Virus record (IMG/VR): IMGVR_UViG_2556921669_000003
Location: 1 to 64,000 of that record
Origin: a virus
Lineage: Duplodnaviria > Heunggongvirae > Uroviricota > Caudoviricetes
Length of the DNA: 64,000 nucleotides
Direction: 5' to 3' (one strand)
Below are positions 5,230 through 62,414 of the stretch, piece after piece. Both the position numbers and the translations under genes were made by a program. The notes beneath the pieces were generated by a model. It searched no databases, had not been told where the DNA came from, and saw only the letters and a list, made by a program, of their open reading frames with translations. Numbering within the stretch: the first letter of the stretch is position 1; every line of letters begins with the position of its first letter.

Positions 5230-5247
5230 GCGTCACGCTACGGCAGC

Positions 5248-37896: not shown

Positions 37897-38295
37897 ATGA
37901 CTATGCTCAATATCTTCAAGGATGACGCGTTCAGCCTCACTTCGCTGACCGACTCCATCAACGAGATCGAGTACCGCTCGAGCCGAATTCAGGAGTTGGG
38001 CCTTTTCGAGGAAAAGGCAGTTGCCACGACCACGATTGCGATCGAGCGCATCGGCGACAAGATCCAGCTCGTTCCCCCGGCACCTCGTGGCGGTAAGGGT
38101 GACGTGAAGGAAAAGCAGAAGGCAACTGCCAAGCCCTTCGCGATTCCCCACTTTCCTCGCGAATGGTCCGTGTTGGCCGATGAAGTTCAGAACGTCCGCG
38201 CATTCGGCTCCGAGTCTGAAGTCGAAACGGTCATGTCCGTTGTCCTTGACAAGATCATGGACAACATGGCCGACATCGATGTGACGCATGAGTAT
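37897..38295 (+). pseudogene. major capsid protein (lambda gpE family), 5' portion (aa 1-133), interrupted by the insertion
   Basis: N-terminal similarity to lambda E stops at ...DIDVTHEY; the ORF then reads through AT-rich foreign sequence (..SGVSLKYRKKPRIYNN..). Confidence 0.75.
38284..38295. repeat. attL core: ACGCATGAGTAT (direct repeat, in frame T-H-E-Y)
   Basis: Identical 12-mer at 51772..51783, each at the break point of the capsid reading frame. Confidence 0.6.
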
Positions 38296-38465
38296 TCTGG
38301 GGTTAGCCTCAAATATAGAAAAAAACCACGAATATACAACAACTTAGCTCGGCGCAAGTCGGGCTATTTTGTTGCCCGACGGGCAACAACCTCCCCGAAC
38401 AAAAACAATGACTTACGGAAAGTCCGGGCAAACCCGCGCGACTTTCTTGCGACAAGGATTGCAGC

Positions 38466-38666
38466 ATGAGCACCAACGAAAAGGCTGACCTCCTTTATGG
38501 GGTGGCCAGCATCGCCAAGCACTTGGGCATTACCGAACGTCGAGCGCTCTACCTGAAGGAAAAGGGAAGCATTCCCACCTTCCAGATCGATCGTACCGTC
38601 TGTGCCCGAAAGACCAGCCTCAACGCTTGGCTTGCCGAGCAGGAAGCGAAGGGGAGGGGCGAATGA
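38466..38666 (+). CDS. xis: AlpA-family excisionase / DNA-binding regulator
   Basis: 66 aa; LLYGVASIAKHLGITERRALYLKEKGSIPTF is a typical AlpA/Xis winged HTH; sits about 170 nt inside the left junction after arm-like repeats (TTGTTGCCCG-A-CGGGCAACAA). Confidence 0.7.
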   Translation: MSTNEKADLLYGVASIAKHLGITERRALYLKEKGSIPTFQIDRTVCARKTSLNAWLAEQEAKGRGE

Positions 38667-38950
38667 CGAGGGGCCGCACCAAGGAAGCGCAGGACGCCTT
38701 CATTCAGAAGTTGCTTCACCCCGAAGCCGCCCCGGTGGAAGCCGACATTCCGCAACCGGATCCCGCGCCGCAAGAGGACGAGGAAGGCACGGATTATGAC
38801 CTGACCTTTGAGCAGATGAGCGTTGACCAGCTAAACGCGGTCCTCGCATGGAACGAAGGTGACGCCCAGATGACCTTGGACTTCCTTGCTGAGTTTCGCC
38901 CGTATGTGGAGGCCCGTCGCCGCGGCGAGCCCGTGAGGTGGCAGGAATGA
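38663..38950 (+). CDS. hypothetical protein (95 aa)
   Basis: ATGA overlap with the xis stop; acidic. Confidence 0.4.
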   Translation: MTRGRTKEAQDAFIQKLLHPEAAPVEADIPQPDPAPQEDEEGTDYDLTFEQMSVDQLNAVLAWNEGDAQMTLDFLAEFRPYVEARRRGEPVRWQE

Positions 38951-39153
38951 ATGCCATGGAGCGCATCTTGGCCGCCATGGCGGAAGGCCGGAGGAACGAC
39001 CCACCACATGAAGAGCTAAGTCTGCTGGACGCGCTTCGCTGCATGCTCCCGGCGGCGGAAGCGGATGCGGCGGAATCGCAAGGCCAACTTGATTTCTTGC
39101 GCGCGGAAATCGCCAAACTTGAGGCGGCGAAAGAGGAATCGGAGATGACGTGA
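38947..39153 (+). CDS. hypothetical protein (68 aa)
   Basis: ATGA overlap. Confidence 0.4.
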   Translation: MNAMERILAAMAEGRRNDPPHEELSLLDALRCMLPAAEADAAESQGQLDFLRAEIAKLEAAKEESEMT

Positions 39154-40394
39154 CATACCAAGAAGGTTCACGGGAGGAGTATGAGGCACACCTCGCTTCA
39201 ATTAGCGATGCGGAATGGAAGCGCCGCACTCAGGACGCCGTATGGTTTTCCAAAGACCCGCCCCGCCTTGGACCGGACCCGCCGCTGACCTTCCACAAGA
39301 ACTTCACGGCAATCCAGCCCAAACGGTATGTGGTGGGCGACTTCCTCGCGGAAGGCGAGGTGTCATGTTTCTTCGGTGAGCCCGGCGCGACTAAGGGCAC
39401 CATTGCGGTGGACATTGCCTGCCACGTCGCGGCCGGTCTGCCTTGGATGGGCCGCACGGCAGGGGGGCACCTTGACCCTTGGGAGAGGAAGGCGCTGGGC
39501 AAGGAGAGTATGCCGGCGGGCGTGCTCTATATCGCGCTCGAGCGCTCTACCCAGGTACAGCGCCGCGTTGAAGCGTTCACGGATGAGCACGGAATTCAGG
39601 AACCACTTGACCTTGCTATATGGTCCGGTCCGCTCGATCTAGTTGGTAGCGAAAGAGACGACATCCTCTCCGCCGTCTACGCGCATGAGCGAGCGCAGGA
39701 GGAGGACGAGGAAGGCGAGGGTAGCTACCGCGAAGTGCGACTCGTGGTGATTGACACCCTTGCCCGCGCCTTCGGCTCCGGTTCGGATAGCGGCGGCGAA
39801 GAGACGGCGGCGGTGGCGAGAAAGTTTGAGCGCGTTCTCCGGTTCCGTCCTGACCTGCATATCTTGGTGGTGCACCATACCCCGATAGGTGATGACTCCC
39901 GCCTTCGCGGCCACGGCAACCTGCTTGCCGCCTTTGACCAGACGGTGCGGGTACGCAAGCACAAGGTAGGTTCCACCGCCACGGTGATGAAGGACAACGA
40001 CACGGCGGAAGAGGGCAAAGCCCGGTTCGCCTATGCGCTCAAGAGTCGCGTCATCCACGTTGCCAAGGACGGCAAGGAAACCACCGCGCCTGTTGTGGTG
40101 CCGCTCCCGGCCGAGGCCGTCAAGCACGCCATGCCGAAGGTCAGCGTGAAGGCGGCGGGACCGAAGGCCAGCAAGAGCGAGCAACCGCTCCTAGATGCTC
40201 TTGAGGGGTTGGGTGGCTCTGCCACCGAAGCGGACTGGCGAGTGGCGTTTGATGCCGCAAGGCAGGATGGCCTATCACCAAGCGCTCACCGAAAGCGCTG
40301 GTCCGTCGGCCGGCCCGCCCTAGAGGCGAAGGGGCTGGTCCAAAAGGATTCCGAAGGGCGTTACCGCGTTACCGTTACCAACGTTACGGAATAA
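39150..40394 (+). CDS. RepA-like / AAA_25 replication initiator-helicase loader of the inserted element
   Basis: GEVSCFFGEPGATKGTIAVDIACHVAAGLPWMG parallels the helper PrimPol C-domain GEFTTISGLPGTGKSVVTTDLACHIAAGMDWHG; C-terminal wHTH-like region; GTGA overlap. Confidence 0.7.
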   Translation: MTYQEGSREEYEAHLASISDAEWKRRTQDAVWFSKDPPRLGPDPPLTFHKNFTAIQPKRYVVGDFLAEGEVSCFFGEPGATKGTIAVDIACHVAAGLPWMGRTAGGHLDPWERKALGKESMPAGVLYIALERSTQVQRRVEAFTDEHGIQEPLDLAIWSGPLDLVGSERDDILSAVYAHERAQEEDEEGEGSYREVRLVVIDTLARAFGSGSDSGGEETAAVARKFERVLRFRPDLHILVVHHTPIGDDSRLRGHGNLLAAFDQTVRVRKHKVGSTATVMKDNDTAEEGKARFAYALKSRVIHVAKDGKETTAPVVVPLPAEAVKHAMPKVSVKAAGPKASKSEQPLLDALEGLGGSATEADWRVAFDAARQDGLSPSAHRKRWSVGRPALEAKGLVQKDSEGRYRVTVTNVTE

Positions 40395-40510
40395 GAATGG
40401 TAACGCTTTTGGTAACGTAACGTTTTCAGACGGGGTTAGGGCGCACAGCGTTACCAACGTTACCGTTACTACCCCCCTCTTTAGAGGGGGAGTAAGTAAC
40501 GTAACGCTTG
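40360..40510. repeat. satellite origin: about 10 GGTAACG/CGTTACC iterons plus the palindrome CCCCCCTCTTTAGAGGGGG
   Basis: Iterons begin within the last codons of repA (..RVTVTNVTE) and continue for about 120 nt with no ORF. Confidence 0.5.
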
Positions 40511-40550
40511 GTGCGCTTCGCCCCGTGAAAAATCCGTAAGGGTGAAGATC

Positions 40551-40862
40551 ATGGAAATTGATGATGTAGAGCTCGCTGTCTCTCGGGCTTTGCGGGATGG
40601 CGCAGGAAACAAACCCGCGCAAGAATTCGGATTTGCTATCCAGCCCTTCCGGGGCACGCGCCTATGTGGCGGCGAGTTTGAGGACGCCGTGGCCGTTGTC
40701 GGCGTGCACTTCAACGGCAAGGGTGACTACAGCTTCATTTGTGTCGCGTCGGACGGCGTGGGCGAGACCTACGTCACTCAGGAGGAGAACCTTCTGGGCG
40801 TGGATCTTCCTTACGGCTTTCCACCGGCTCCGGCGCAGGACGCCAACCCGTCTGATCCATAG
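40551..40862 (+). CDS. hypothetical protein (103 aa)
   Basis: Follows the ori; AGGGTG SD. Confidence 0.4.
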   Translation: MEIDDVELAVSRALRDGAGNKPAQEFGFAIQPFRGTRLCGGEFEDAVAVVGVHFNGKGDYSFICVASDGVGETYVTQEENLLGVDLPYGFPPAPAQDANPSDP

Positions 40863-41016
40863 CCGCCATGAGCAAGGCGAGGAGGCGAGGAACGTCTCGC
40901 GTCCCGCTCTCAAACTCCGAAATGCGGACCTTGCTTCCGTACCCCAGAAGCGCCGCAAGCGCCTCCTGCTTATAGCCGAGGCGCTTGCGGATTGCTTTGA
41001 ACTCTTCGCTGGTCAT
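40774..41016 (-). CDS. XRE-family HTH transcriptional regulator
   Basis: LGYKQEALAALLGYGSKVRISEFESGTRDVP helix-turn-helix. Confidence 0.6.
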   Translation of the reverse strand: MTSEEFKAIRKRLGYKQEALAALLGYGSKVRISEFESGTRDVPRLLALLMAAMDQTGWRPAPEPVESRKEDPRPEGSPPE

Positions 41017-41231
41017 CGTGCGGCCCGCAGGTAATCCATGCCATAAACGTCAATGGTCCAATCGCCGTCTTCGGCGACTTCCATGGCCTGCATTACCAGC
41101 TTCCAAGCCTTTTCGCGAGAGACTTCGCGGTACACGTCACCGTCGACCTTCACGTCAAATGCATAGACCTTGCACTGGCCGTCGAAGCGGCGGGTGATGT
41201 TGACCTTGATGTCTGCGGTGCCGGTGTTCAT
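41013..41231 (-). CDS. small hypothetical protein (72 aa) co-transcribed with the XRE regulator
   Basis: GGGAGAG SD; ATGA overlap with the XRE gene; its promoter carries the GTAACGCATTTGCGTAAC palindrome. Confidence 0.45.
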   Translation of the reverse strand: MNTGTADIKVNITRRFDGQCKVYAFDVKVDGDVYREVSREKAWKLVMQAMEVAEDGDWTIDVYGMDYLRAAR

Positions 41232-41259
41232 TTCGCTCTCCCTTGCCGTTGGATTATTA

Positions 41260-41277
41260 GTAACGCATTTGCGTAAC
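41260..41277. promoter_or_regulatory. 18-bp palindromic operator GTAACGCATTTGCGTAAC in the spacer of the regulator-operon promoter (-35 TTGCTA)
   Basis: Reverse-complement copy (20/21 identity) of the site in the integrase promoter at 50358..50375. Confidence 0.45.
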
Positions 41278-41395
41278 TTTAGCAAGGGCGAATTTCAAGA
41301 ATTCGGTGCCGCATTCGTCTCCTGCGGACGGTGCCGGGCCGGGGAGTCGCGTCTCCTCTTTCTCCTCGGCCACCCCTTCAACAATAGGAAATCAC

Positions 41396-42337
41396 ATGAA
41401 CCACGTTGACCAAGAAAGGCTTGAGGCGCACGCCAAGGGCCTCCCTCTCCAAACCCGGCGCAAGCTGCCCGCGCTCATTGACGCCTCCGTTGACGCCATG
41501 ACGGCGTTCGGGGGTGCCAATGACACTGCCCGCGAAGCTCATACGGCTTACATTGATTCGCGGCTCCGCTTTATCAACCGCTGGAACGTCGAAGAGGCAC
41601 AAGCTCCTACCGGCGAACCAATCTTCACCTACGTGCCTGCCCGAAGGAACGAAGTGCCTGAGTTTCGCTTTGAAAGCGAACGTGAAGGCGTCATCGAGAA
41701 ATGGCAGGTCTGGCAGCGCCGAAAGCGTGCGCGGGACAAGGCAGACGTTGTTCGCGCGGGCAACGAATATCTTCAGGATATCCTGGGCTGGCTCCGCGAC
41801 AATCCCGGCCCCTTCAAGTCGGCCGCCATGCCGCCGGCGAAACTCGGTAAAGGCCAGACGCACCACCAGGCAGTGGAAGATATCCGCGAACGTCTGATCC
41901 GCATTGACGAGAAAGTCGCGGCCACAGAGTACGCTCCGACGCCGGCCGAAGACCTGATAGCCCGCGCCCATGCTGCCGTTGATGACTTAGCCCACCGGGG
42001 CAAGGTCCATATCTATACCAACAACCGGGACGGCTCGCCGGTGAACCTTTCGGGGAGCGGCAGGCTGACAGGCGTGACGGGCATTCTGCCAGAAACTCTG
42101 GTCTGGCTCCTGGCCGATGAAATCAAGGCCAGCGTTTCCGCCAAGATCCGCGAAGTCGCGTCCAAGGACGCAATCAGCGACTTTGACCGCGCTGCCGAAC
42201 TGTCCGCCCTAGCCGCTGACAAGCTTGCTTTGGAGCGGCTGGAAGAAGCCCACATTCTCGCGGCCGCCGAAATCGGCCAAATCATCCACCGACGCCGTGA
42301 AGCCAATCCGCGCGCAATTCTGGAACTTGAAGCATGA
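41396..42337 (+). CDS. hypothetical protein (313 aa) upstream of the satellite protease
   Basis: Start ATG after AGGAAATCAC; ATGA overlap with the downstream protease gene. Confidence 0.45.
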   Translation: MNHVDQERLEAHAKGLPLQTRRKLPALIDASVDAMTAFGGANDTAREAHTAYIDSRLRFINRWNVEEAQAPTGEPIFTYVPARRNEVPEFRFESEREGVIEKWQVWQRRKRARDKADVVRAGNEYLQDILGWLRDNPGPFKSAAMPPAKLGKGQTHHQAVEDIRERLIRIDEKVAATEYAPTPAEDLIARAHAAVDDLAHRGKVHIYTNNRDGSPVNLSGSGRLTGVTGILPETLVWLLADEIKASVSAKIREVASKDAISDFDRAAELSALAADKLALERLEEAHILAAAEIGQIIHRRREANPRAILELEA

Positions 42338-42957
42338 TCCAACTCGACATGATGGGCACGGTGGGCGAAGATTTCGACGCTGCAACCGTCAAGTTTGCCC
42401 TTGCGCAAGGTGGTGACGTGCATGTCACCCTCAATAGCGGGGGCGGGTTCGCGGCAGAGGGCGCCGCTATCTATGCCTTGTTGGACGCGCACCCCGGCCG
42501 GGTTCGCGTGGATATTGTTGGCATTGCGGCCAGTGCTGCAAGTCTCATTGCCATGGCGGGCGACAGCATCGTCATGTTTGATGGCGCGGTCATGATGATT
42601 CATGATCCGCTCAATATCACCATTGGCAACTCGGCGGCCCACGCCAAGACCATCGAGGAACTGGAAAGCTATGCGAAGGCATATGCGGCGATCTATGCCA
42701 AGAGAGCGAAGATCAGTCCTGCTGCGGCGCGAGCAATCATGCAGGCAGAAACTTGGTATGACGGCGAAGCCGCCGTGAAAGCCGGGTTCGCAACTGCCAA
42801 GTCTTCGAACGCTTCTGCCGCTTGGGCGAAGTTTGACTATGACAAATACCAAAAGGGTGCGGCGGCTGTAGCCGGTGCGAGCAGCACGCGTGCATCATGG
42901 AAACAGACAATCATGCGCCGCAAGGCATATGAAGACGCATTCGTAATCAGGGGATAA
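42334..42957 (+). CDS. S49/ClpP-like prohead-protease paralog (no scaffold domain)
   Basis: LNSGGGFAAEGAAIYALLDAHPGRVRVDIVGIAASAASLIAMAGDSIVMFDGAVMMIHDPLNITIGNSAAHAKTIEELESYAKAYAAIYAKRA is about 60% identical to helper protease 36085 residues 40-150. Confidence 0.7.
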   Translation: MIQLDMMGTVGEDFDAATVKFALAQGGDVHVTLNSGGGFAAEGAAIYALLDAHPGRVRVDIVGIAASAASLIAMAGDSIVMFDGAVMMIHDPLNITIGNSAAHAKTIEELESYAKAYAAIYAKRAKISPAAARAIMQAETWYDGEAAVKAGFATAKSSNASAAWAKFDYDKYQKGAAAVAGASSTRASWKQTIMRRKAYEDAFVIRG

Positions 42958-42962
42958 ATCAC

Positions 42963-43250
42963 ATGGCTACCACTCGACTATTCAATCTGCCCGCTGATGC
43001 ATGGACGCTTGTTGCGTCCGGTGCGGCCAGCATAACCATCAAGCCTATCACCAACGTGGCTATCCGTGCCTATGTCGGTCGTACCCTGCTGGAGGATACC
43101 AATGAGGCGCTTACCCTTGGCGGCCTGGGGGCTGTGCTAACGCTGGATAACCCGTCCGACGCTGACCATGTGTACCTCAAGCCAGCAGAGCGCACAGAGG
43201 TAGAGGTAGGCGTGGGCATGGCTTATCGCGCCTTGCTGCCGGGGGCCTGA
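42963..43250 (+). CDS. hypothetical protein (95 aa), possibly capsid-associated
   Basis: Directly after the protease paralog. Confidence 0.4.
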   Translation: MATTRLFNLPADAWTLVASGAASITIKPITNVAIRAYVGRTLLEDTNEALTLGGLGAVLTLDNPSDADHVYLKPAERTEVEVGVGMAYRALLPGA

Positions 43251-43383
43251 CCCGCCCCTGGCATAGGGACCGTTTGGCCTGTCCAAACCGATAGCGGGCG
43301 CGACACCCTCGCCGGTCGGACTTTATCTAGTTCAAAAACAGGGTAACAGAATGCGGACACCCCCGAAAATGGAGGCGAAACCC

Positions 43384-43578
43384 ATGGTTGCATACTTCGT
43401 CAACCAAGCGGCCTACGCCGAACACCAGAAGGTTTCAAGAAAGACTGTAACCATCTGGAAACAAAAGGGATACCTTGTTTTGAATTCGGCAGGACGAGTC
43501 AATGTCGCCGCATCAGATAAGCGTCTTTTGGACGCCTTCGGCGAACGTCGCCGCGTGTTACCCCCTGTCCGCAGGTAA
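43384..43578 (+). CDS. TerS N-terminal (HTH DNA-binding) domain paralog, stand-alone 64 aa
   Basis: VNQAAYAEHQKVSRKTVTIWKQKGYLVLNSAGRVNVAASDKRL vs helper TerS MNQAGFAAHRRVSRKTVTGWKQRGLLVLLPDGQVDVAASDRAL; GGAGG SD. Confidence 0.5.
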   Translation: MVAYFVNQAAYAEHQKVSRKTVTIWKQKGYLVLNSAGRVNVAASDKRLLDAFGERRRVLPPVRR

Positions 43579-43618
43579 CACCAACTGCGGACACCCCCAT
43601 CACCTTCACCATCCACGA

Positions 43619-43640
43619 CCCGCCGAAGCGCGGGTTTTTT
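43619..43640 (+). terminator. rho-independent terminator CCCGC-cgaagc-GCGGG plus TTTTTTGTTG
   Basis: GC stem followed by a T6 run, after the TerS-domain paralog. Confidence 0.5.
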
Positions 43641-43661
43641 GTTGTCCAGAAAGGACCACCC

Positions 43662-43928
43662 ATGACCGTAACCTACACCCTCCGCACTCCCGTTGAACAT
43701 GCTGGCACGACCTACCAGGAACTGACATTCCGCGAGGCCACGACGGGCGACATGATTGTTGCTGACAAGTTCGACGGCCCGAACGGCAAGCTCATCGCCA
43801 CCTTCGCCGCCATGTCTGACGTGCCGCTGCCCGCCTTCAAGAAGGTGAGCATGCGCGACTTCAACAAGATCGTCCTGGCGGTGGCTGACCTCATGGGGGA
43901 GGACGAAGCGGCGGATGGCGCGGCCTAG
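43662..43928 (+). CDS. tail assembly chaperone (lambda gpG-like)
   Basis: 88-aa acidic protein immediately upstream of the tape measure gene. Confidence 0.55.
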   Translation: MTVTYTLRTPVEHAGTTYQELTFREATTGDMIVADKFDGPNGKLIATFAAMSDVPLPAFKKVSMRDFNKIVLAVADLMGEDEAADGAA

Positions 43929-44121
43929 TCGCGGTCATCGCCTCAGAGCTCAATACCCCGATTCACGTCATTGAGCAGTGGCCGCCTGACAAGACCCTCG
44001 ACTGGTATCAGGCGGCCATTGAACTCATTGCGCTGAAGAACGGGCAGCATCCCCCCGAGCCATCTGAGGCTCACACGGCCATGAGCGCCACCATAAAAGC
44101 GAAAAAGGAAGCGCGGCATGA
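43928..44121 (+). CDS. gpT-like extension, probably expressed as a G-T fusion by -1 frameshift
   Basis: The -1 frame after the G stop is open and encodes ...VIEQWPPDKTLDWYQAAIELIALKNGQ..., typical of tail assembly protein T; slippery site not confidently identified. Confidence 0.35.
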
Positions 44122-46559
44122 GTAAAAGGTCCGCAGAACTCGTCCTGTCTCTCACCGATAAGGTGAGCGGCAGGGCGAAAGGCGTCCATGCCGCCCTTGC
44201 CAAACTCCAGATGATGGCGGCCCGTAATGCAGCCGCCATGGACGCCATGCAGAGCCGCATGGTGACTGCTGTCGCTATGGGCTACACCCTGGCCCAGAGC
44301 CTGAGCGCGCCTATCAAGTCGGCCGTGGCGTTCGAATCAAAGCTGGAGGATATCGGCCAGAAGGCGGACATTCCCCAGAAGCGCCTTGCGGAATTGGGGA
44401 AGCAGCTTCGGATTGTCGGGCGGGAGACGAACCAGGCCGGATCCGAAATGGCGAAAGGGATGGATACCCTTCTCGGTCTTGGTGCCTCTGAGGGTGACGC
44501 GCTGAAGCTCTTGCCCAATATCGGCAAGGCGGCTTTTGCCTACAAGGCCAGCATTGAGGACCTGAGCGCCGCCGGCTATTCCACCCTGAGCAATCTGAAG
44601 GTTCCGGCAGATCAATTCGGCAAGTCCCTAGACGCCATGGCTACGGCCGGAAAAATGGGCGCCTTCGAACTCAAGGACATGGCCCAGTATTTTCCTGCCC
44701 TTGGCGCGGGATATCAAGCACTTGGTCAGACCGGCGTGCCGGCCGTTGCCGACCTTTCGGCAGCCCTGCAGGTGGTTCGCGGGGCGACAGGTGATTCCGC
44801 CTCGGCCGCGACAAACCTCGGCAACGTCCTGCAGAAGATCAACTCGCCCCAGACAGTCAAAGCCTTCAAGAAACTGGGCGTGAACCTCGAGCGCGAGCTG
44901 AAGAAGCGTGCCGAAGCTGGCATGAGTCCAATCGAGGCCATCGCGGACATCACCAACAAGACCCTGAAGGGTGACCTCAGCAAGCTTGGCAATCTTTTCG
45001 AGGATTCACAGGTCCAGCAGGGCCTTCGTCCGCTCATCCAGAACATGGAGGAATACCGTCGTATCCGGGCGGCGGCCATGGCAGCGTCTGGCACGGTTGA
45101 GTCCGACTTCCAGCGCCGTATGAAGACATCGGAAGGAGCGCTTCTGCGGATGCAGGCCGCCCTGGAGAACGTATCTGCCTCCATCGGTGCAGCCCTGTTG
45201 CCCGCCCTCAATCAGGTGATCGACAAGGTTGCGCCCGTTGTCACCGGGATTGCTGACCTTGCGGAACGGTATCCCGAAGCCACCTCCGCAATCGTCGCCG
45301 CAACGGCTGCTGTGGTGGGCTTCAACGTTGCAATGACGGCCACCCGGTTCGCCTTCCTGTGGACGAAGGGCGGTATCCTGTCCATGGTGATTCCGGTGGC
45401 GCGGTTGGCCACCCACTTCGGCACGGCGGCGACGGAAGCCGTTGCGCTTCAGCGGTCCCTCAAGGCGCTCTCCACGTCGAAAAACGCCGGCATGGCCGCC
45501 ATGCTTGACGGGGGTCTCAACGGCGCGGGCCTAACCAAGCTTGAAACGGTTCGTACCGCTCTTGGTGGCATGGCCGCCGCCGTGCCGGGCGTTACCGCAA
45601 TCGGCGGGGCTCTCAGTACCGTTGGTGCTGCACTGGCCACCATCTCCGCGCCGGCATGGTTCGCCATTGGCGCGGGTGTTGCTCTTGTTGCCGGTGCTGG
45701 CCTTGCGCTCTGGCAAAACTGGGATCGTATCAGCAGCATAGTGACAGGCGTTGCTCGCGCGATCGGCGAGGAACTTCAGCCTGCCATCGACTTTCTATGG
45801 CCGGTGCTCGATCCCTTCGCGCAGTCGTTCTCCGCATTGGGGGATGCTGCAAAATGGGCGTGGGAGCAGTTCAAAGAGGCGGCTAGCTGGCTCGGCTCGT
45901 TGTTCCAGTCGAATGACCTGACGCGCCAGCACCAAATGGTCATCGAGGACAACGCCTATGCCGTAACCCGCAAGCTTATCGACGGCTTTAAAGCGCTGAA
46001 TTCTGCGATGTTCCAGGCCGGCGTGGACATGATTCAGGGCATCATTGATGGCGTCGTGGCCAAGGCGGGCGAACTTCTGGCTTGGTTTACCTCCCTGCCG
46101 GACAAAATCAGGGCGGCGATCGGCAGGATCGATCTCAGTAACATCATCTCGTGGCCAAAAATGCCGACATGGCTTGGAGGCGGCGAAGAAGCTCCTGCAC
46201 AAAAGCCAGCCGTCGACGGAGCTCGCGCCAAGGGCGGCCCAGTCCGGAGCGGTGGGCTCTATGTCGTTGGCGAGCGCGGGCCGGAGTTGTTCAGTCCCGG
46301 CAGCGGCGGGATGATCAGCCCGAACGACGCCTACCGGGCAGCAGCAGCCGGTGCGTCCAGTGGTGGCGGTTCCCGTTCTGGCGGCGGCGGAAACACTTTC
46401 AACATCCAGCCAGTAATTCACATCCCCGTAAATGCACCAGTTGGCGGCGATCCCGACGCATTCGCGCGAAACGTTTCCGACAAGGTGGGCGACTACGTCA
46501 TACGGCAGCTTGAGGGCTCCTTTGGATTTGAGCTGGCAGACAACATGACCTACAGGTGA
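44118..46559 (+). CDS. tail tape measure protein (813 aa)
   Basis: Long Ala/Gly/Leu-rich alpha-helical protein with TMP core motifs, after the G/GT chaperones. Confidence 0.85.
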   Translation: MSKRSAELVLSLTDKVSGRAKGVHAALAKLQMMAARNAAAMDAMQSRMVTAVAMGYTLAQSLSAPIKSAVAFESKLEDIGQKADIPQKRLAELGKQLRIVGRETNQAGSEMAKGMDTLLGLGASEGDALKLLPNIGKAAFAYKASIEDLSAAGYSTLSNLKVPADQFGKSLDAMATAGKMGAFELKDMAQYFPALGAGYQALGQTGVPAVADLSAALQVVRGATGDSASAATNLGNVLQKINSPQTVKAFKKLGVNLERELKKRAEAGMSPIEAIADITNKTLKGDLSKLGNLFEDSQVQQGLRPLIQNMEEYRRIRAAAMAASGTVESDFQRRMKTSEGALLRMQAALENVSASIGAALLPALNQVIDKVAPVVTGIADLAERYPEATSAIVAATAAVVGFNVAMTATRFAFLWTKGGILSMVIPVARLATHFGTAATEAVALQRSLKALSTSKNAGMAAMLDGGLNGAGLTKLETVRTALGGMAAAVPGVTAIGGALSTVGAALATISAPAWFAIGAGVALVAGAGLALWQNWDRISSIVTGVARAIGEELQPAIDFLWPVLDPFAQSFSALGDAAKWAWEQFKEAASWLGSLFQSNDLTRQHQMVIEDNAYAVTRKLIDGFKALNSAMFQAGVDMIQGIIDGVVAKAGELLAWFTSLPDKIRAAIGRIDLSNIISWPKMPTWLGGGEEAPAQKPAVDGARAKGGPVRSGGLYVVGERGPELFSPGSGGMISPNDAYRAAAAGASSGGGSRSGGGGNTFNIQPVIHIPVNAPVGGDPDAFARNVSDKVGDYVIRQLEGSFGFELADNMTYR

Positions 46560-47104
46560 GGATCAACATGGCAGGAACACTAGATGGGCTTCTCCGAAGC
46601 ATGGGGGAACGCATTCAGGATCTGGAGCGGCGGAACAATAATCGCCGCCGCACCGGCACCATTGCGGAAGGCCCTGATGAAAAGGGCCGGTATCGCGTCA
46701 ACATCTCAAAACAGGCCAGGGCGGATCAGCCGTATCTGACGCCATGGATACGCCCTAAGACCGTCGGGGCCGGCGCGGTCAAGATGGACGTGGTTTACGC
46801 CATTGGAGAGCAGGTCGATATTGTCTCAGAGAACGGGGATCTTACAGATGCCCGTATCGATTTCGGGATGTATTCCGACGACAACCCGCGCGAGAATGGC
46901 GAGAACGTGCCGCTCCGGCTGAAGGTAGGCGACTCCATCATCGAGGTGAGCGGGGGGGGCATCACCCTGAAGGCCACCAAGATCGTCCTAGACGGCACCG
47001 TGCACCTTGGAGGCGAAGGTGGGCAACTCCTCCACCGTAAGGGGGACGCAGATAGCGACGGCGATACGGCAGTCGGTTCGGCCAGCCGAGTCTACGCGGT
47101 GTAA
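46556..47104 (+). CDS. gpV-like baseplate spike/hub protein paralog
   Basis: N-terminal OB-fold region similar to helper gpV (53889); C-terminal 35 aa [41 protein letters not shown] is nearly identical to the helper copy. Confidence 0.65.
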   Translation: MRINMAGTLDGLLRSMGERIQDLERRNNNRRRTGTIAEGPDEKGRYRVNISKQARADQPYLTPWIRPKTVGAGAVKMDVVYAIGEQVDIVSENGDLTDARIDFGMYSDDNPRENGENVPLRLKVGDSIIEVSGGGITLKATKIVLDGTVHLGGEGGQLLHRKGDADSDGDTAVGSASRVYAV

Positions 47105-47106
47105 TC

Positions 47107-47754
47107 ATGCTCAAAATCGACATCAAGGGCGACGGTCTCGCCCTCTTCACCAAGGCGACGGCGGCCCTCAAGTCGCCCCGCAAGGCCGGCCAAGTCTTCA
47201 GCCGCGCCATCAATGAAACCGGACGGGTTGGGGGCACGGCTGCCGCCCGCGCTCTTGCCGTACAAACCGGACTGCCCCGCAAGACCACACTGAAGGCCGT
47301 GCGCCGCAACGTGTCGAAGTCGACTCCCGCCACCCTCTCCTATGTGATCCACGGACAGGGTGGCGACGTGAGCCTGAAATACTTCAAGCCGCGCGAAACC
47401 AGGGCCGGTGTAAGCGCCGCCCCGCGCGGCGTGCGGCAGGTATTTCCCGGTTTGTTTCAGAGGGCTGGCTGGTGGCCGAAACGTGTCGACAAGCCTGCCT
47501 GGAACAGGCAGATCTTCGTCCGCATTGGCGATGGCCACAGTTACAATCTCGCCAAGTCAAACCCGTTTGTGAAGTCCGGTCAGCAGAAGCGTGAGCGCGT
47601 CGGCACCAAGTTCGCCAAGCAAAAATCAGGCGTATTTATCCCAGTCGAGATGCTTCGCGGGGAGACGGCCAAGGTTTGGGATCAGACGTCCGCGCGCCTC
47701 GAGCCTCGGGTGATCCACCATATCAACCGGATGACGGGCGGGTTGTTCACATGA
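47107..47754 (+). CDS. gpZ-like tail completion protein paralog
   Basis: Collinear weak similarity to helper 30869 and lambda Z. Confidence 0.45.
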   Translation: MLKIDIKGDGLALFTKATAALKSPRKAGQVFSRAINETGRVGGTAAARALAVQTGLPRKTTLKAVRRNVSKSTPATLSYVIHGQGGDVSLKYFKPRETRAGVSAAPRGVRQVFPGLFQRAGWWPKRVDKPAWNRQIFVRIGDGHSYNLAKSNPFVKSGQQKRERVGTKFAKQKSGVFIPVEMLRGETAKVWDQTSARLEPRVIHHINRMTGGLFT

Positions 47755-47886
47755 TCACGGCAACCTCGGCAACACGGGCAACGGCGTTGCCGAGGTTGCC
47801 GGGCCTGTGCCTAGACCGACGCCGGGGCGTCCGACCCGCATTGGCCCCGTTGGGGCTGGAACAGTCTCTAACCCACCGGGGGTCTC

Positions 47887-48123
47887 ATGATCCGCATAAG
47901 CCACATGAACCCGGCGCGCGGCAGGATCGCCGCAACATTCACGGCAACGGTTGGGGAGCTAGTGCTCCCCGGCTGCGCCTTGATCAGGCGGGACGGCGGC
48001 TTCGGCTTGTCGGTGCCGCGCCTGACTGGCGAAGGCGGGACGCGGCGAGCCCCGCTATCCGATGCAATGGAAGCAGAACTTCTCAGGGTGGCAATAGCCA
48101 CGCACACAACCTCGGAGCAATGA
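47887..48123 (+). CDS. hypothetical protein (78 aa)
   Basis: Follows a perfect 16-bp inverted repeat (about 47757..47800). Confidence 0.35.
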   Translation: MIRISHMNPARGRIAATFTATVGELVLPGCALIRRDGGFGLSVPRLTGEGGTRRAPLSDAMEAELLRVAIATHTTSEQ

Positions 48124-48503
48124 TGACCAAATTCACCATTTCTAATATGAAGCCCTCACATCATGCCGGCAGCACGCTTGCCACCTTTAATGTGCACCTG
48201 CGCGAATTAGGGATTAGCCTGCGCGGGATCACCCTGTCCCGTCCTTCGCACGTCCCCGTGCCTGAGACGCGGCTATACTTCCCTGACCAAAGGAAGGTAA
48301 GCGACACCGCATACTACATCGGTCCCTGTGAACTTCGAACCAGGATCGGCGCCGCTGCTTGTGCCGCTTACACGGCAATGACGGGGGAGCCCGCATCATT
48401 CATTCCGAAAGAGGCAATCGACGACAGCACCGAAGATGAGGCTGCCGGCATGATGCGCTTCATTGGCGCGGAAAACGAAACGCTGCGCAAGGCGGGGATC
48501 TAG
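48120..48503 (+). CDS. hypothetical protein (128 aa)
   Basis: ATGATG start overlapping the upstream stop. Confidence 0.4.
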   Translation: MMTKFTISNMKPSHHAGSTLATFNVHLRELGISLRGITLSRPSHVPVPETRLYFPDQRKVSDTAYYIGPCELRTRIGAAACAAYTAMTGEPASFIPKEAIDDSTEDEAAGMMRFIGAENETLRKAGI

Positions 48504-48512
48504 GAGAACACC

Positions 48513-48848
48513 ATGAACGCAATCGAACGTTGGTCAGCTATCATGGCGCTGCCCGAATACAACGAACAGCTTCATGCTATGGCTGCGCTGCTCTTCAAGG
48601 ATGAGCAGTTGTCGGTAGAGCAGGTGCAAGCAACGCTTGCTGTGGCGAAGCGAAGCGCGCCGGCTGCCAGCAAGGTGGAGACGCCTGAGAGCTATGACGC
48701 CTATAGGGCACGGATGGCGCAGGCCGCTGGCGACGAGCTAGAAATTGCGGGCGCACGACTTAGTGACGGTCGCTCAGCCAAGGACATCTCCACGAAGGCA
48801 CTCTGGGCCAAGGCCATTGCCGAGGTCAATGCGCGCCGCCAACCTTGA
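48513..48848 (+). CDS. hypothetical protein (111 aa)
   Basis: Non-repetitive; its stop lies inside the next operator-promoter copy. Confidence 0.45.
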   Translation: MNAIERWSAIMALPEYNEQLHAMAALLFKDEQLSVEQVQATLAVAKRSAPAASKVETPESYDAYRARMAQAAGDELEIAGARLSDGRSAKDISTKALWAKAIAEVNARRQP

Positions 48849-48873
48849 CAAATTTGTAAAAGGATACTATGCC
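48845..48873 (+). promoter_or_regulatory. operator-promoter copy TTGACAAATTTGTAAAA inside the satellite
   Basis: Exact 17-mer identical to the helper PR operator; followed by the CACCACAAGAGGAGACT module. Confidence 0.45.
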
Positions 48874-48919
48874 TCTTGATGCCGGTGCACCAACCCGGCA
48901 ATCACCACAAGAGGAGACT

Positions 48920-49075
48920 ATGATGACCGACGAACGCAGAATGTCTGCCCTTAAGCTTGTCATTGAGGCGCGGCGGCTTTGGGGCAACACGGTTGCTCAA
49001 GAGCTATGGCGGCACTTAGGACTGCCAGCGGTTCCAGCCATGCTGTTGCCACCATGTGCGGTGGAGAAGGACTAA
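48920..49075 (+). CDS. small hypothetical protein (51 aa) under the helper-type operator
   Basis: MMTDERRMSALKLVIEARRLWGNTVAQELWRHLGL... Confidence 0.4.
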   Translation: MMTDERRMSALKLVIEARRLWGNTVAQELWRHLGLPAVPAMLLPPCAVEKD

Positions 49076-49083
49076 CGGGAGAA

Positions 49084-49106
49084 CCCGGCTTCGGCCGGGT
49101 TTTTTA
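49084..49106. terminator. bidirectional rho-independent terminator CCCGGC-ttcg-GCCGGG plus TTTTTT
   Basis: Located between convergent genes 48920 (+) and 49104..49409 (-). Confidence 0.45.
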
Positions 49107-49409
49107 TTGTTTGGTCTTGTATTCCGGACGGGCCTTCGCCGGCGGCTTGAAGGAAGCGCAAGCCTCGTCTACGGATGGCGCGCGGGCGTACTGCTCCCTG
49201 ATATAGGTCCGGTCCTTCGCCACCAACTGGGGGTCTGATCCGTTGATGGTCATGCTCGCCACCATGACCCCCAGGGAATGCTCCTGGCTGAAGTCGCAAT
49301 GAGCGACCATCCATTCAAGGGCAAGCGCGCCTTGCAGGTGCGTGAACTCCTCCGCATGCGCGGGGGCGGCGAGGGCAAGGGCGGCTGCTAGCGGAAGAGC
49401 GATTCTCAT
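49104..49409 (-). CDS. secreted small protein (signal peptide MRIALPLAAALALAAPAHA)
   Basis: GGGAGGA SD; Sec-type signal peptide plus an 80-aa mature domain with 2 Cys; opposite strand to its neighbours. Confidence 0.5.
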   Translation of the reverse strand: MRIALPLAAALALAAPAHAEEFTHLQGALALEWMVAHCDFSQEHSLGVMVASMTINGSDPQLVAKDRTYIREQYARAPSVDEACASFKPPAKARPEYKTKQ

Positions 49410-49901
49410 ATTTGTATCCTCCCTAAAATTAGTGACGCGCGAACCGCCCGTCCTTGCCGGGACGGGTGTTGCGTTTGTGAACGAATAGGGTGAATATGTT
49501 CGCGGAGCTTCAGAACTCCCGCATCGGTCCCTTGCCGGGGATTGCGATGCTAACCGCGATAGGCGTGCGCTGCGGCTTGCCGGCCGAGGTACGCTGAAAA
49601 CTTGACGAGACAACGCCGTTGTCCCGACCGGCTCACTATTGCCGGGAAGGCCACGGTCGTCAAGAGGTAACTCTTGGCCTTGCATAAGCCCGAAAGGGTG
49701 AAGGTCGTGGCGCATGTCTTCGCGGGCATGTTCTGAACTTCCCGGCGCCAGCCTGCTGCTGGCTTGCCCTTCACGTTCGCCTTCAGAAGCGCCGTGACGG
49801 AAGTAACCGCGAGCAAAATCTCTATGCACAAGAGCCTATATTTTGAAAGCCCACCTCCCGCATTCCAGCGTGAGGAGGAAGAGCCTTCCGACGTTCCAAG
49901 A

Positions 49902-50261
49902 ATGGCGGAGCTATCCAGCCGGTTGCGCACCTCCATGAGGGACTACGCGCCAATGCCCGACGCTGCCATGAACGACATGAACCGCGCCCACACCGCCGTG
50001 ATCCATGCGCTCATAGCCGCGCCTATTTCCAAATCCCGTGACGTGGCATGCAAGCTTCGCGTCCTAGCTGATCTTGTTGAGGGGGACGAAGGCGGCGTGC
50101 TGGTCCATGAGGAGGACATGCTTGTGGCGTGCCTCCATGACCTTGGGGCCTTGCGTATCCGTGACGCGCTTACGCTCGGCTTTGGCTGGGTTGAGAGCAT
50201 CTATGGTGATCTCCTTCAACTTCGTGGCGGCGGGTTTAGCGAACTCGACGTAGCGGGATAG
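49902..50261 (+). CDS. hypothetical protein (about 120 aa)
   Basis: Internal Met of ORF 49764; the upstream part lacks coding character. Confidence 0.4.
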   Translation: MAELSSRLRTSMRDYAPMPDAAMNDMNRAHTAVIHALIAAPISKSRDVACKLRVLADLVEGDEGGVLVHEEDMLVACLHDLGALRIRDALTLGFGWVESIYGDLLQLRGGGFSELDVAG

Positions 50262-50357
50262 CTCCGCCGGTGCCGGTGCTCGCGTAGTGCCGGCCAAGAG
50301 AGGGCCGTCCGCTTCATATGGAGGCGGGCGGTCTCTTTCGTTTTAGGGGTTGCAAAA

Positions 50358-50375
50358 GTTACGCAAATGCGTAAC
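50358..50375. promoter_or_regulatory. 18-bp palindromic operator GTTACGCAAATGCGTAAC in the integrase promoter spacer (-35 TTGCAA)
   Basis: Same architecture and sequence as the site at 41260..41277 in inverted orientation. Confidence 0.45.
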
Positions 50376-50401
50376 ATGGCGTTATCAGATTTCGATAGGA
50401 G

Positions 50402-51751
50402 ATGATCATGGCTAGTGTAAGAAAGCGGTTCCCGGATGACCCGAAGTCGCCTTGGGTTTGCGACTATGTAGATCAGTCGGGCACGCGCCGACTAAAGACG
50501 TTCAAGATGAAGAAGCTCGCCGACGCTTTTCGGATGAAAATGGAAGCGGAGATATCTGAGGGCATTCACACGTCAGACAGAGAAAGCGTGACGGTCGCAC
50601 AGGCCGCCGACGCCTTTATCAGGGACTGCGAACGGCGACACCACATAGGTGACGAGATGTCCGGTTCGTCCCTGGCCGCTTACCGTGGCGCCGTAAAGGT
50701 CGTGAAGCTTCGGTTCGGCAGCATGCTGGTGAAAAACCTGACAACCATTGCCGTGCAGGCGTGGGTGGACGAGTTGTCGGTGCAAAGGAAGCGCAACACC
50801 CTCCACAGTAGGTATCGCGCGCTTCGCATGATATTGACGTTTTCGGTGCGCAAGGGATGGATCAAGCGAAGCGTGCTCAAGGACGAACCGGCCCGTCTGC
50901 CGGCACTCGGCAATGAGCGGGTCCGAATTCCAACGAAGGCTGATATCGTCAAGGTCATCGACGCTACGCGAAAGGAAAAAAAGCCCGGCCGACATTACAA
51001 CACCGTCCTAGTCAACCGCGCGATTGTGCTGCTTGGCTTTCACTGCGGAATGCGTATCGGTGAGATAGCAGGACTCCAGTGGGAGAACGTCGATTTTACC
51101 AATGACACCGTTGCCGTGCGTCACAGTCATTCGCGCGAAGACGGGTTGAAGGCGCCGAAGTCATCTGCGGGGAATCGAGATATTCCCATGTCTCCCGATG
51201 TGCGGGCGGCACTCATGGACTTGTGGCAATACTGGACATTGAGGGCGCGTGTCGTGAAACTTGACGCGGGCGGCTACTCCAAGGGCAAGTGCACGCCGAA
51301 GGCGACATTCACCCGTCGCCGCAATCAGTTGGAACGGGCGCTTGCGCAGCCGTTCTCGGCGCACGAAGTTGATGAACCTCTTGAAGGTTTCGTCATGCGT
51401 TCAATTGCCGCCAACGGCCGGCACGGCTTTGAGCATTATGACCCGGCCGGGGTGGCAAACCTGCAAGCGTCCAACTGGCACACAATCATGTCGGACGCCG
51501 GCCTTCTAGACGACGACGGAAAACCTCTGTTCTCTTCGCACAAGATGCGACATGCGGCAGTCAGCCTCATGATTGAAAGCGGGCTTCCCGCACTCAACCT
51601 AAAGACGGTTATCGGTCACAAGAATATCAACACCACGATGTCCGTTTACGCGCATCTATTCCCTGATGATCAGCGCTCCAAGATCGCCATAGAAGGGATT
51701 GCGGCGGCCTTGGACGCGACAAGGGTGCGACAAAATAACGTAAGTATCTGA
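50402..51751 (+). CDS. int: tyrosine site-specific integrase
   Basis: C-terminal catalytic region with the R...HxxR...Y pattern (..HKMRHAAVSLM...MSVYAHL); 20 nt inside the right junction. Confidence 0.85.
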   Translation: MIMASVRKRFPDDPKSPWVCDYVDQSGTRRLKTFKMKKLADAFRMKMEAEISEGIHTSDRESVTVAQAADAFIRDCERRHHIGDEMSGSSLAAYRGAVKVVKLRFGSMLVKNLTTIAVQAWVDELSVQRKRNTLHSRYRALRMILTFSVRKGWIKRSVLKDEPARLPALGNERVRIPTKADIVKVIDATRKEKKPGRHYNTVLVNRAIVLLGFHCGMRIGEIAGLQWENVDFTNDTVAVRHSHSREDGLKAPKSSAGNRDIPMSPDVRAALMDLWQYWTLRARVVKLDAGGYSKGKCTPKATFTRRRNQLERALAQPFSAHEVDEPLEGFVMRSIAANGRHGFEHYDPAGVANLQASNWHTIMSDAGLLDDDGKPLFSSHKMRHAAVSLMIESGLPALNLKTVIGHKNINTTMSVYAHLFPDDQRSKIAIEGIAAALDATRVRQNNVSI

Positions 51752-51771
51752 ATTACTTAGCTGTCAGAATA

Positions 51772-51783
51772 ACGCATGAGTAT
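51772..51783. repeat. attR core: ACGCATGAGTAT
   Basis: Second copy of the 12-mer; in frame with the downstream capsid C-terminal reading frame. Confidence 0.6.
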
Positions 51784-52422
51784 CACCGTCTCGGCGCCAT
51801 TCAGGGCCTCGTGACCTACGCTGACGGGACGACGCTTGATCTTTTCAGCGAATTCGCTGTCTCGCAGGCCGCAGAACTCGACTTCGATCTCGACAACGCC
51901 AACCCAGCGGAAGGCGTACTTCGCAAGGCTTGCTCCAATGTCGTCCTCAGCACGCGCAACGCGATGGGCGGCTCGCCGTTTGCTCGCGTTCACGCATTTG
52001 TGGGTGACACGTTCTTTGACCAGTTGATTTCCCATAAGGAAGTCCGCGAGACCTACAAGGGGTGGTCGGAAGCCGCCATCCTTCGTGATAGCTACGTCAG
52101 TCCTGATCGAGGCGGCAACGACATCTTCTCCTTCGGTGGCATCGCGTTTGAGCGGTACGGCGCAGCCACCTCTGTAGGCGACGGCGCCAAGATCGGCATA
52201 GAGGCTACCAAGGCGAAGTTCTTCCCGGTCGGCGCCCGTGGCATGTTCAAGACGTATTACGCGCCGGCTCCGTACATGGAGACGGTGAACACGCTGGGTC
52301 GTCCGTTCTACGCCAAGCAGGCTCTGCTTGACCTGGACAAGGGCGTCTACGGCGAAACGCAGATGAACGCTCTGGACATCTGCACACGTCCGAAGGCGCT
52401 GATGCGCGCCAAGAACACCTAA
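51784..52422 (+). pseudogene. major capsid protein (lambda gpE family), 3' portion (about 212 aa)
   Basis: Collinear with the C-terminal half of lambda E; reading frame continuous through the 12-mer; fusion with 37897..38295 gives a 345-aa protein (lambda E is 341 aa). Confidence 0.75.
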
Positions 52423-53892: not shown

Positions 53893-54422
53893 TCCCGAAC
53901 ACGATTGAAGGTCAAATTGCTGACCTTTACCACCGGCACGCAGAGAGTGAGCGGCGCGCCCGCAATCGCAAGCGCACCGGCACGGTGGTCGAAGGGCCGG
54001 ACGACAAGGGCCGGTATCGGGTGAAAATCTCCGAGCAGGGCGGCACGCCGTACCTGTCTCCATGGGTAAAGCCTAAGACCTACGCCGCCGGCGGGGTCAA
54101 GATGGACGTGGTCTACACCGTAGGCGAGCAGGTCGATCTGGTTTCCGAAAGCGGCGACCTGACCGATGCCGTTATCGAGATGTCGACCTATTCCGAGGCG
54201 AACGCCCGCGAAAACACCGGCAACGTCCCGCTGCATATCAAGATCGGCTCGACGGTGATTCAGGCGGGCGGTGATGGCGTGACGATTACCGCCGGCAAGA
54301 TCGTGCTGGATGGCGAGGTTCATCTGGGCGGTGAGGGCGGTCAACTGCTCCACCGCAAGGGCGACGCCGACAGCGATGGCGACACGGCCGTGGGCTCTGC
54401 GACGCGGGTCTACGCGGTCTAG
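53889..54422 (+). CDS. gpV-like baseplate spike/hub protein (helper copy, GTG start)
   Basis: P2-like order V-W-J-I follows; OB-fold N-terminal domain plus conserved C-terminal tip. Confidence 0.7.
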
Positions 54423-62366: not shown

Positions 62367-62414
62367 GTTGCCCGCACAGCCGGGCTTTCACCACACACTA
62401 CGGAGGAGGCCCGC

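Follow-up and report, generated by a model that had tools for sequence, protein, structure and literature searches.

We analyzed a 64,000-nt stretch of viral DNA (IMG/VR record IMGVR_UViG_2556921669_000003, positions 1 to 64,000; hereafter the window), which comes from Shinella sp. DD12 (contig AYLZ02000109.1). Inside a prophage, between 42334 and 47754, stands a run of genes that includes diverged second copies of head, packaging and tail genes of that same prophage. We found that this run belongs to a 13,488-bp element (38296..51783) within the major capsid gene of the prophage. The element is a phage satellite, not a prophage, because capsid, portal, large terminase, sheath, tube and fibre genes are absent from it. 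Strong purifying selection acts on its tail genes, all of which are intact. The reading that we favor, with rather more confidence than doubt, is that the segment is the late module of the satellite, which would excise, remodel the heads of its helper, use the helper's packaging machinery and build chimeric tails. Sequences retrieved for comparison are given by their L numbers.

The surrounding prophage has its late region on the plus strand from about 30.8 kb, with the gene order of Aurantimonas phage AmM-1 and Paracoccus phage Pyei1, both myoviruses: gpZ-like protein, TerS, GpA-type TerL, portal, ClpP-type protease-scaffold, gpD decoration protein and lambda-E-type capsid protein, then two conserved genes of no recognized kind, gpV, gpW, gpJ, gpI and the fibres. 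This helper is an AmM-1-like temperate myovirus. L003 is identical to the window over a 14.7-kb overlap and reaches 6.4 kb past the window end. Past the fibres it encodes the helper's sheath, tube, TAC_7 chaperone (89 amino acids, aa), tape measure (724 aa), gpU, gpX and gpD.

The element is co-oriented with the late operon, all its major genes lie on the plus strand, and an identical 12-mer, ACGCATGAGTAT, marks both ends of the insertion. The attachment (att) site falls in residues 130-133 (THEY) of the capsid protein. Rejoining the two capsid halves gave a 345-aa protein that matched the Pfam family Phage_cap_E over positions 1-329 of 329 (E 4e-90). The earlier note, which was made on this DNA from sequence alone, had called the region an inserted satellite, and the att repeats, which restore the capsid gene, bear it out. 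The split is precise and reversible in sequence terms, restoration being read at that level only. The insertion would have been made by the tyrosine integrase of the satellite itself. Among the ten main genes of the element, Pfam and PHROG searches gave no match to a capsid, portal, TerL, sheath, tube, wedge or fibre protein, and the virion genes missing from the element are all present in the surrounding prophage, as is general for phage satellites.

The relation between satellite and helper genes was examined by blastp of all plus-strand open reading frames (ORFs) of the window against each other. The protease, TerS, gpV and gpZ pairs listed in the earlier note all proved homologous, and its family names held (ClpP-type protease, phrog_57 TerS, Phage_TAC_7, PhageMin_Tail/TP901, Phage_base_V and phrog_27). 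Three pairs can be added: the chaperones, the tape measures, and a small satellite protein matching the C-terminus of the helper scaffold. The element's tail genes would have meant something else had they been the helper's only copies. This is not the case: the helper chaperone and 724-aa tape measure lie downstream in L003, gpV and gpZ genes of the helper lie within the window, and every paralog has a helper counterpart. The satellite therefore has a tape measure, chaperones, spike and gpZ in addition to those of the helper, as had been claimed.

The tail genes diverge from those of the helper to different degrees. The chaperones are 45% identical; the 78-codon extension in the -1 frame is homologous to that of the helper, so the G/GT-style arrangement is conserved. 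The satellite gene has a G-run at 43895, and the helper gene carries a canonical G GGA AAC slippery site. The tape measures share 21% identity over about 400 aa, and that of the satellite is 89 aa longer (813 vs 724 aa). The gpV spikes are 64.6% identical over 175 aa (E 8e-82), and the gpV family profile matched P2 gpV (3QR8) and 4S37 at E 3e-11, which makes this a P2 gpV-type spike, a type in which an N-terminal OB-fold domain (Phage_base_V) precedes a trimerisation/apex region. The gpZ-like proteins are 28% identical over 222 aa (E 3e-16). The satellite copy itself had no Pfam match; four of the nine family members match Minor_tail_Z in Pfam, the helper copy passes the Pfam GPZ threshold, and a gpZ profile had no match among Protein Data Bank (PDB) sequences.

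The last ~40 residues of gpV deserve separate mention. The earlier note had seen a near-identical C-terminus and proposed recent recombination or selection to fit the same baseplate. The first part stands, with ~97% amino acid identity between satellite and helper. Recent recombination does not, since only ~35% of the third codon positions agree; this indicates long-term purifying selection instead. The same C-terminus is found in the DD12 helper and in all four Shinella-type satellite spikes, and is absent from the spikes of Pyei1, AmM-1 and L008. It is therefore not an invariant of the whole family and is better described as a lineage-specific constraint. By analogy with P2 gpV (3QR8), it would form the distal apex of the spike rather than the end that binds the hub. 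As the spike tip is identical to that of the helper and the element carries no fibre or baseplate-wedge genes, the change of host range that the earlier note considered possible is unlikely, and a change of tail length, its other proposal, is plausible from the lengths of the two tape measures.

On the head side, the satellite protease is 58.5% identical to that of the helper over 176 aa (E 5e-35), with the same active-site motifs, GIAASAAS and MMIHDP. It lacks the scaffold domain, as had been noted (207 vs 354 aa). A separate 111-aa protein, here called the mini-scaffold, aligns with residues 268-351 of the helper protein (43% identity over 104 aligned positions, E 1e-10). Three proteins end in a common motif: TRASW in the satellite protease, TKASW in the helper scaffold and TKALW in the mini-scaffold.

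The packaging gene is a stand-alone N-terminal domain of TerS (TerS-N), 58% identical to residues 1-48 of helper TerS over 48 aa (E 2e-15). The earlier note was right about its homology; the start it gave, 43384, is less likely than 43351, because GGGTAACA there has the same spacing as at the start of helper TerS. A short version of 68 aa is kept in L091, and 163-aa versions are found in L088 and L089; the short L091 version implies that the stand-alone domain is conserved, not accidental. The motif TAGGGACCGT, which precedes TerS-N, has an exact copy at 31602, 86 nt 5' of helper terS. It also occurs 5' of terS in Pyei1 and 5' of a TerS-N-like gene in L171-173, and is present in AmM-1 and L101; L088, L089 and L091 have a variant. 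From this distribution, TAGGGACCGT may be a packaging site common to satellite and helper. At the nucleotide level, blastn of the element against the helper found no long near-identical tract. The best match was gpV at 71%, which gives no hint of recent gene conversion.

Do the tail genes form a working unit? The chaperone, tape measure, gpV and gpZ recur at 66-87% amino acid identity in three other elements: L088 and L089, two islands of another Shinella chromosome, and L091, a 12.7-kb IMG/VR element. In pairwise comparisons with these three, the ratio of nonsynonymous to synonymous substitution rates (dN/dS) was 0.06-0.15 for tape measure, gpV and gpZ, at dS of ~1.1-2.4. By gene, it was ~0.10 for the tape measure, 0.06-0.10 for gpV and ~0.10 for gpZ, with 0.14-0.34 for the short chaperone gene. 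The cassette of TerS, chaperone, tape measure, gpV and gpZ follows a P4-type integrase and Prim-Pol in L088, and a Topo-VI-like protein and AAA_25 in L089. The cassette is thus common to satellites that differ in their integrase, replication and head modules.

Tape measures at a greater distance (39-48% identity) lie beside a chaperone in small islands that have an integrase and lack sheath and tube. Such islands come from Mesorhizobium, Hoeflea, Agrobacterium tumefaciens, Rhizobium grahamii and metagenomes, and some of them additionally encode a capsid protein, a gpZ-like protein or a hub of the gpD type. In the AmM-1-like myophages L093 and L098, the native tape measure, which follows sheath and tube, is 42% identical over its full length. 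Because the same type of tape measure is native to AmM-1-like myophages, a helper-like phage is the probable source of the cassette, which would plausibly fit the tail of the helper. L144, the nearest relative of the helper, has a mosaic tape measure. Our literature search found no paper on Rhizobiales satellites with tape measures. The features are collected in Table 1.

Table 1. Features of the satellite and of the helper prophage (positions in the window; HTH, helix-turn-helix; AF2, AlphaFold2).
Feature	Position	Strand	Remarks
Helper gpZ-like tail completion protein	30869..31486	+	Minor_tail_Z E 4e-7; phrog_27 E 2e-19
Helper TerS	31688..32311	+	Paralog pair; position as in AmM-1 and Pyei1
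Helper protease-scaffold	36085..37149	+	CLP_protease E 8e-21; 354 aa
Helper major capsid gene, N-terminal part	37897..38295	+	Joined with 51784..52422
attL core ACGCATGAGTAT	38284..38295	+	In helper capsid codons T-H-E-Y; identical 12-mer at both insertion ends
AlpA/excisionase-like HTH gene	38466..38666	+	HTH_17 E 0.005; phrog_18541 E 5e-12
Replication protein (AAA_25, primase/helicase-like)	39150..40394	+	PF13481 E 6e-25; phrog_906 E 3e-28; 81% identity to copy in sister L005
CGTTAC/GTAACG repeat cluster, putative replication origin	40349..40517	.	Direct and inverted repeats at and just past the end of the replication gene; candidate role
313-aa all-helical protein	41396..42337	+	16 homologs only; AF2 pLDDT 86
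ClpP-type prohead protease without scaffold domain	42334..42957	+	PF00574 E 1.5e-17; NF045542 E 5e-41; 207 aa
95-aa conserved protein	42963..43250	+	79% identity in L005
TAGGGACCGT motif, putative packaging (cos-like) site	43264..43273	+	After C-rich tract; 87 nt 5' of terS-N
Stand-alone TerS N-terminal DNA-binding domain, 75 aa	43351..43578	+	phrog_57 E 2e-6
Tail assembly chaperone (E-like 43662..43928) with -1-frame extension 43889..44125	43662..44125	+	Phage_TAC_7 E 4e-12
Tape measure protein, 813 aa	44118..46559	+	PhageMin_Tail E 1e-21; phrog_28 E 4e-83; TIGR01760 E 4e-32
gpV-type central spike	46556..47104	+	Phage_base_V PF04717 E 6e-7; PF21930 E 5e-4
gpZ-like tail completion/Neck1 protein	47107..47754	+	phrog_27 E 2e-13
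Mini-scaffold, 111 aa	48513..48848	+	Resembles helper scaffold C-terminus
51-aa ORF	48920..49075	+	Between promoter/operator motif and terminator (region 48841..49105)
Terminator	49078..49105	+	Ends region 48841..49105; strong
Tyrosine integrase	50408..51751	+	PF00589 E 8e-18; 100% match to Shinella sp. DD12 protein
attR core ACGCATGAGTAT	51772..51783	+	Second copy of 12-bp direct repeat
Helper major capsid gene, C-terminal part	51784..52422	+	Joined with 37897..38295
Helper gpV spike	53889..54422	+	177-aa Phage_base_V gene in L003; paralog pair

In the mechanism that we propose, induction of the helper would lead to excision of the satellite, and only afterwards could the helper capsid protein be made, as has been argued for helper-embedded satellites of Enterobacteria. 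The scaffold-less protease and the mini-scaffold, both with the C-terminal capsid-binding motif of the helper scaffold, would then remodel the heads together with the 313-aa helical protein, probably giving capsids suited to 13.5 kb; full-size heads packaging concatemers are equally possible. The helper terminase would package the DNA through the cos-like site adjoining the TerS DNA-binding domain. In the tail, the satellite would replace the axial core: the tape measure with its assembly chaperone, the spike beneath it and the completion protein above. The helper would contribute sheath, tube, hub, wedges and fibres, and the resulting chimeric tails are predicted to be ~10-13 nm longer than those of the helper from the 89 additional residues of the tape measure.

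Several points weigh against this mechanism. Excision, packaging and virion composition are things that we infer for this element from its sequence. With only 21% identity between the tape measures, the case for use of the helper's tube and hub comes solely from the natural tape measures of related myophages. TerS-N has only 75 aa, and it might serve in packaging or in regulation, or might be a decoy. An AF2 model of the gpZ-like protein, built from two sequences, had a pLDDT of 35 and was not used. The close sister L005 is readable only as far as the 95-aa gene.

The same genes could be mainly weapons. Tail-core and head paralogs might compete with the helper's proteins in a dominant-negative way, so that assembly of the helper is poisoned or diverted. 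They would then protect the host population and bias the output, and would not be parts of the satellite's virion. Interference with helper assembly is common among satellites, PLE11, a satellite of Vibrio cholerae phage ICP1, has an anti-tape-measure factor (PMC12987554), and the helper-like interaction surfaces kept here, the spike C-terminus and the scaffold C-terminal motif, would serve such a purpose. Yet interference needs less than the conserved block of chaperone with frameshift product, full-length tape measure, spike and completion protein, and the tape measure of the ICP1 satellite is structural and required for transduction (PMC12987554). We consider interference as the main role unlikely, although the two roles are not mutually exclusive. 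A different proposal keeps the cassette structural and places its benefit in DNA delivery, either injection into helper lysogens past a tape-measure-directed superinfection exclusion or tuning of ejection for a small genome. Because the bacterial attachment site (attB) of the element belongs to a gene of the helper prophage, only helper lysogens can be productive recipients. HK97 gp15 reportedly excludes DNA entry in a tape-measure-dependent manner, and in lambda both gpZ and the tape measure function in DNA positioning and ejection. However, L171/L172, L174, L176 and L177, related satellites with tape measures, occupy chromosomal sites instead of prophages, so the cassette is not tied to the embedded lifestyle, and no exclusion gene was identified in the helper. 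We regard a delivery benefit as quite doubtful.

The insert could also be seen as a decaying fragment of a nested prophage, whose virion genes are inert relics. Phage-type structural genes are indeed present, and similar tape measures occur in full AmM-1-like myophages. Decay is nevertheless hard to reconcile with ORFs that are all intact and overlap at start and stop codons, with dN/dS of 0.06-0.15 at near-saturated dS, and with a compact architecture of ~12.7-13.5 kb that recurs in L091 and partly in L005. Furthermore, the backbone of integrase, AlpA-like gene, replication gene and iteron cluster is satellite-like, and the integration is precise and reversible in sequence terms. We therefore consider a relic highly improbable, and return to the late module of a satellite for the comparisons below.

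The earlier note had regarded the combination of a satellite with its own tape measure and spike as not described before. This does not hold as it was put: chimeric tails are known from the ICP1 satellite (PMC12987554), satellites called EPIPs carry a tape measure (PMC12822802), and satellites embedded in late genes were described in 2023 (PMC10111431). The last are the helper-embedded phage-inducible chromosomal islands (HE-PICIs; Tommasini, Mageeney & Williams 2023, PMC10111431), satellites of Enterobacteria within prophage late genes, including the lambda-type capsid gene E (11capE type), with "late zones" of captured genes. The Shinella element is likewise placed in a late gene and co-oriented with the late operon, with a short block of identity at its flanks. 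Like HE-PICIs (PMC10111431), of which we inspected one E. coli example, it also combines AlpA-like and replication genes with a "late zone" where homologs of helper late genes have diverged. The HE-PICI zone order is int/AlpA, Bro, replication, late; here the AlpA-like, replication and late genes come in this order, the integrase lies far downstream, and no Bro-type gene was detected. By contrast, the integrase is at the downstream end and unrelated by BLASTP: against the integrase of the E. coli E:Phage_cap_E:80 HE-PICI (L175 14231-15466) the E value was 0.77, which places it outside the 11capE integrase clade. The capsid site also differs (THEY, residues 130-133, against KPKHE for the HE-PICI site named E:Phage_cap_E:80; PMC10111431). 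The element resides in an alphaproteobacterium, with a myovirus of P2-type tail as its helper, and its late zone has a tail-core cassette and no capsid or decoration gene.

For the tail, the closest parallel is PLE, the satellite of ICP1 just mentioned (Mathur, Boyd et al. 2026, PMC12987554), which builds chimeric tails with a chaperone, a tape measure and a hub that it encodes itself. Its virions hold the satellite tape measure and hub, with the phage's copies excluded. In PLE11, a tape-measure difference of 95 aa makes tails 10 nm shorter, and deletion of the PLE tape measure gene (tmp) lowers transduction by 96-99.9% (PMC12987554). The authors noted putative tmp genes in other satellites, and concluded that the benefit of chimeric tails remains to be deciphered (PMC12987554). 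By gene content, our element is alike in having its own chaperone, tape measure and baseplate-centre protein without sheath or tube, and a contractile-tailed helper. Identities to the helper for these three proteins are 20/20/41% in PLE and 45/21/65% here. Sheath, tube and fibres would again come from the helper, and the tape-measure difference is again ~90 aa. On the other hand, the baseplate-centre protein is a gpV spike here and the hub BhuB in PLE, a gpZ-type completion protein is added, and the helper is temperate with the satellite embedded in it.

The head genes recall capsid-size redirection through mimicry of the scaffold, by the CpmB protein of Staphylococcus aureus pathogenicity islands (SaPIs) with the 80alpha scaffold, and by P4 Sid. 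The small mini-scaffold shares the C-terminal region and motif of the helper scaffold, and the satellite protease also keeps that motif. The satellite is about one quarter the size of typical helper-type genomes (47.8 kb in AmM-1, 50.2 kb in Pyei1). Putative tape measure genes are also found in some capsid-forming PICIs (cf-PICIs) and EPIPs, and our relatives L008, L090 and L177 combine a capsid gene with chaperone and tape measure. Unlike cf-PICIs, which have their own capsid, portal, head-tail connectors and TerS/TerL with HNH, the element has no capsid, portal or large terminase gene and therefore cannot form its own capsid; of the cf-PICI set, only the 75-aa TerS N-domain was detected.

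With helper-embedded satellites (PMC10111431, 2023) and chimeric-tail satellites (PMC12987554, 2026) already known, what is new here is that both strategies are combined, that a spike and gpZ are added, that the host is alphaproteobacterial and the helper a temperate myovirus, and that there is evidence for a broad Rhizobiales family. A wider reading, for and against which we see the balance as even, is that this is a widespread undescribed family of Rhizobiales satellites. Its hallmark, instead of a capsid or packaging gene, would be a tail-core cassette that moves as a block between unrelated backbones. This cassette would comprise chaperone and tape measure, in many cases a completion protein of gpZ type and, in Shinella, the spike too. 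Besides, an alphaproteobacterial clade of integrases would independently target prophage late genes, at capsid gene E and at two sites in terL, and would be unrelated to the enterobacterial HE-PICI type inspected.

If this reading is true, replacement of the tail core and embedding in the helper would be general and convergent satellite strategies, not peculiar to PLE and enterobacterial PICIs. The element and its relatives would be an independent, naturally replicated case of chimeric tails, in another bacterial class and with a temperate helper. The replaced set would be larger and sharply bounded, covering everything on the tail axis and nothing else, with the spike tip held identical to that of the helper. 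Since the replaced parts have these bounds, the case suggests that the tape measure is co-adapted, as one unit, with the proteins that it contacts directly, and it offers a tractable comparison for why satellites swap this unit. Independently of that reading, the element extends helper-embedded satellites beyond Enterobacteria, and as the integrase is unrelated to the enterobacterial HE-PICI type inspected, this is evidence for convergence on holding a late gene of the helper hostage.

Relatives of the integrase lie directly before terL frames without an N-terminus in L020 (11195-14066), L076 (11195-13063) and L010 (11134-12636), from Methylobacterium soli, a Hyphomicrobiales metagenome-assembled genome and Azospirillum sp. 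A26. Identities are 36-38% (L010, L020) and 31% (L076). In L020 and L076, terL resumes at the same (Y/H)LTPY site, ~20 aa before Walker A; in L010 it resumes near the equivalent of helper TerL residues 270-315. Among the more distant tape-measure islands, those at L176 13885-17590 (Agrobacterium tumefaciens) and L177 18781-20691 (Rhizobium grahamii) adjoin defence-type genes, a KAP NTPase with a HEPN AbiU2 gene and a Thoeris-like SIR2/TIR pair. L101 (1-14868), a 14.9-kb IMG/VR contig, is a satellite variant in which the hub, and not the spike, is replaced. Besides an integrase and TerL, it encodes a tape measure, a hub of the gpD type, a gpZ-like protein and a protein distantly related to the 313-aa one, and it has the cos-like motif.

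The remaining genes of the element gave few matches. Wherever the context of the 313-aa protein family is readable (L171/L172, L174), chaperone and tape measure lie alongside. Foldseek with its confident AF2 model found nothing below E 0.3 in the PDB and BFVD, and hhalign gave no homology between its family and the proteins at the same position in L091 and L088. The ORFs of 107, 95, 125, 111, 51, 101 and 165 aa had no match in Pfam, PHROG or NCBIfam, and a PADLOC scan of the small cargo ORFs, which were also blank in Pfam, returned nothing. An Rfam search of the element (E up to 0.1) was empty, and no C4/isrK RNA was found.

At the ends of the element, GCGACAAGG repeats lie beside the att core (window 51715-51735 and 38455-38463), as they do in the sister L005 (1840-2090), and are likely arm-type recombinase sites. 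The L005 core sequence is unlike that of this element, so L005 probably targets another site. In the integrated state, the capsid frame reads on through 58 sense codons of the satellite (ORF 37897..38469), and its TGA overlaps the ATG of the AlpA-like gene as ATGA. This overlap may couple translation of the AlpA-like excision/activator gene to late expression of the helper. A promoter-like motif, CTTGACAAATTTGTAAA, followed by a short spacer and a TAnnAT-type -10 hexamer and including the palindrome ACAAATTTGT, occurs in the window at 5230 (minus strand), 5894, 18729, 28457 and 48844, four times in the helper and once in the satellite. It is also present in L088, L091 and L171-174, including satellites of other hosts, and the satellite may share a regulator with its helper.

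Within the helper, a 529-aa minus-strand ORF (62388..63977) was discarded as a shadow of the sheath gene, which is itself cut off by the end of the window; the ORF is not on record. A tRNA-Met gene (30776-30851) lies within the prophage just 5' of the gpZ-like gene. In the helper tail module, a minus-strand ORF and a gene for a secreted SNase-type nuclease (L003 17958-18784, equivalent to about 67241-68068 in window numbering) separate the tape measure from gpU, and SNase homologs are likewise found 3' of the tail cassette in L088.

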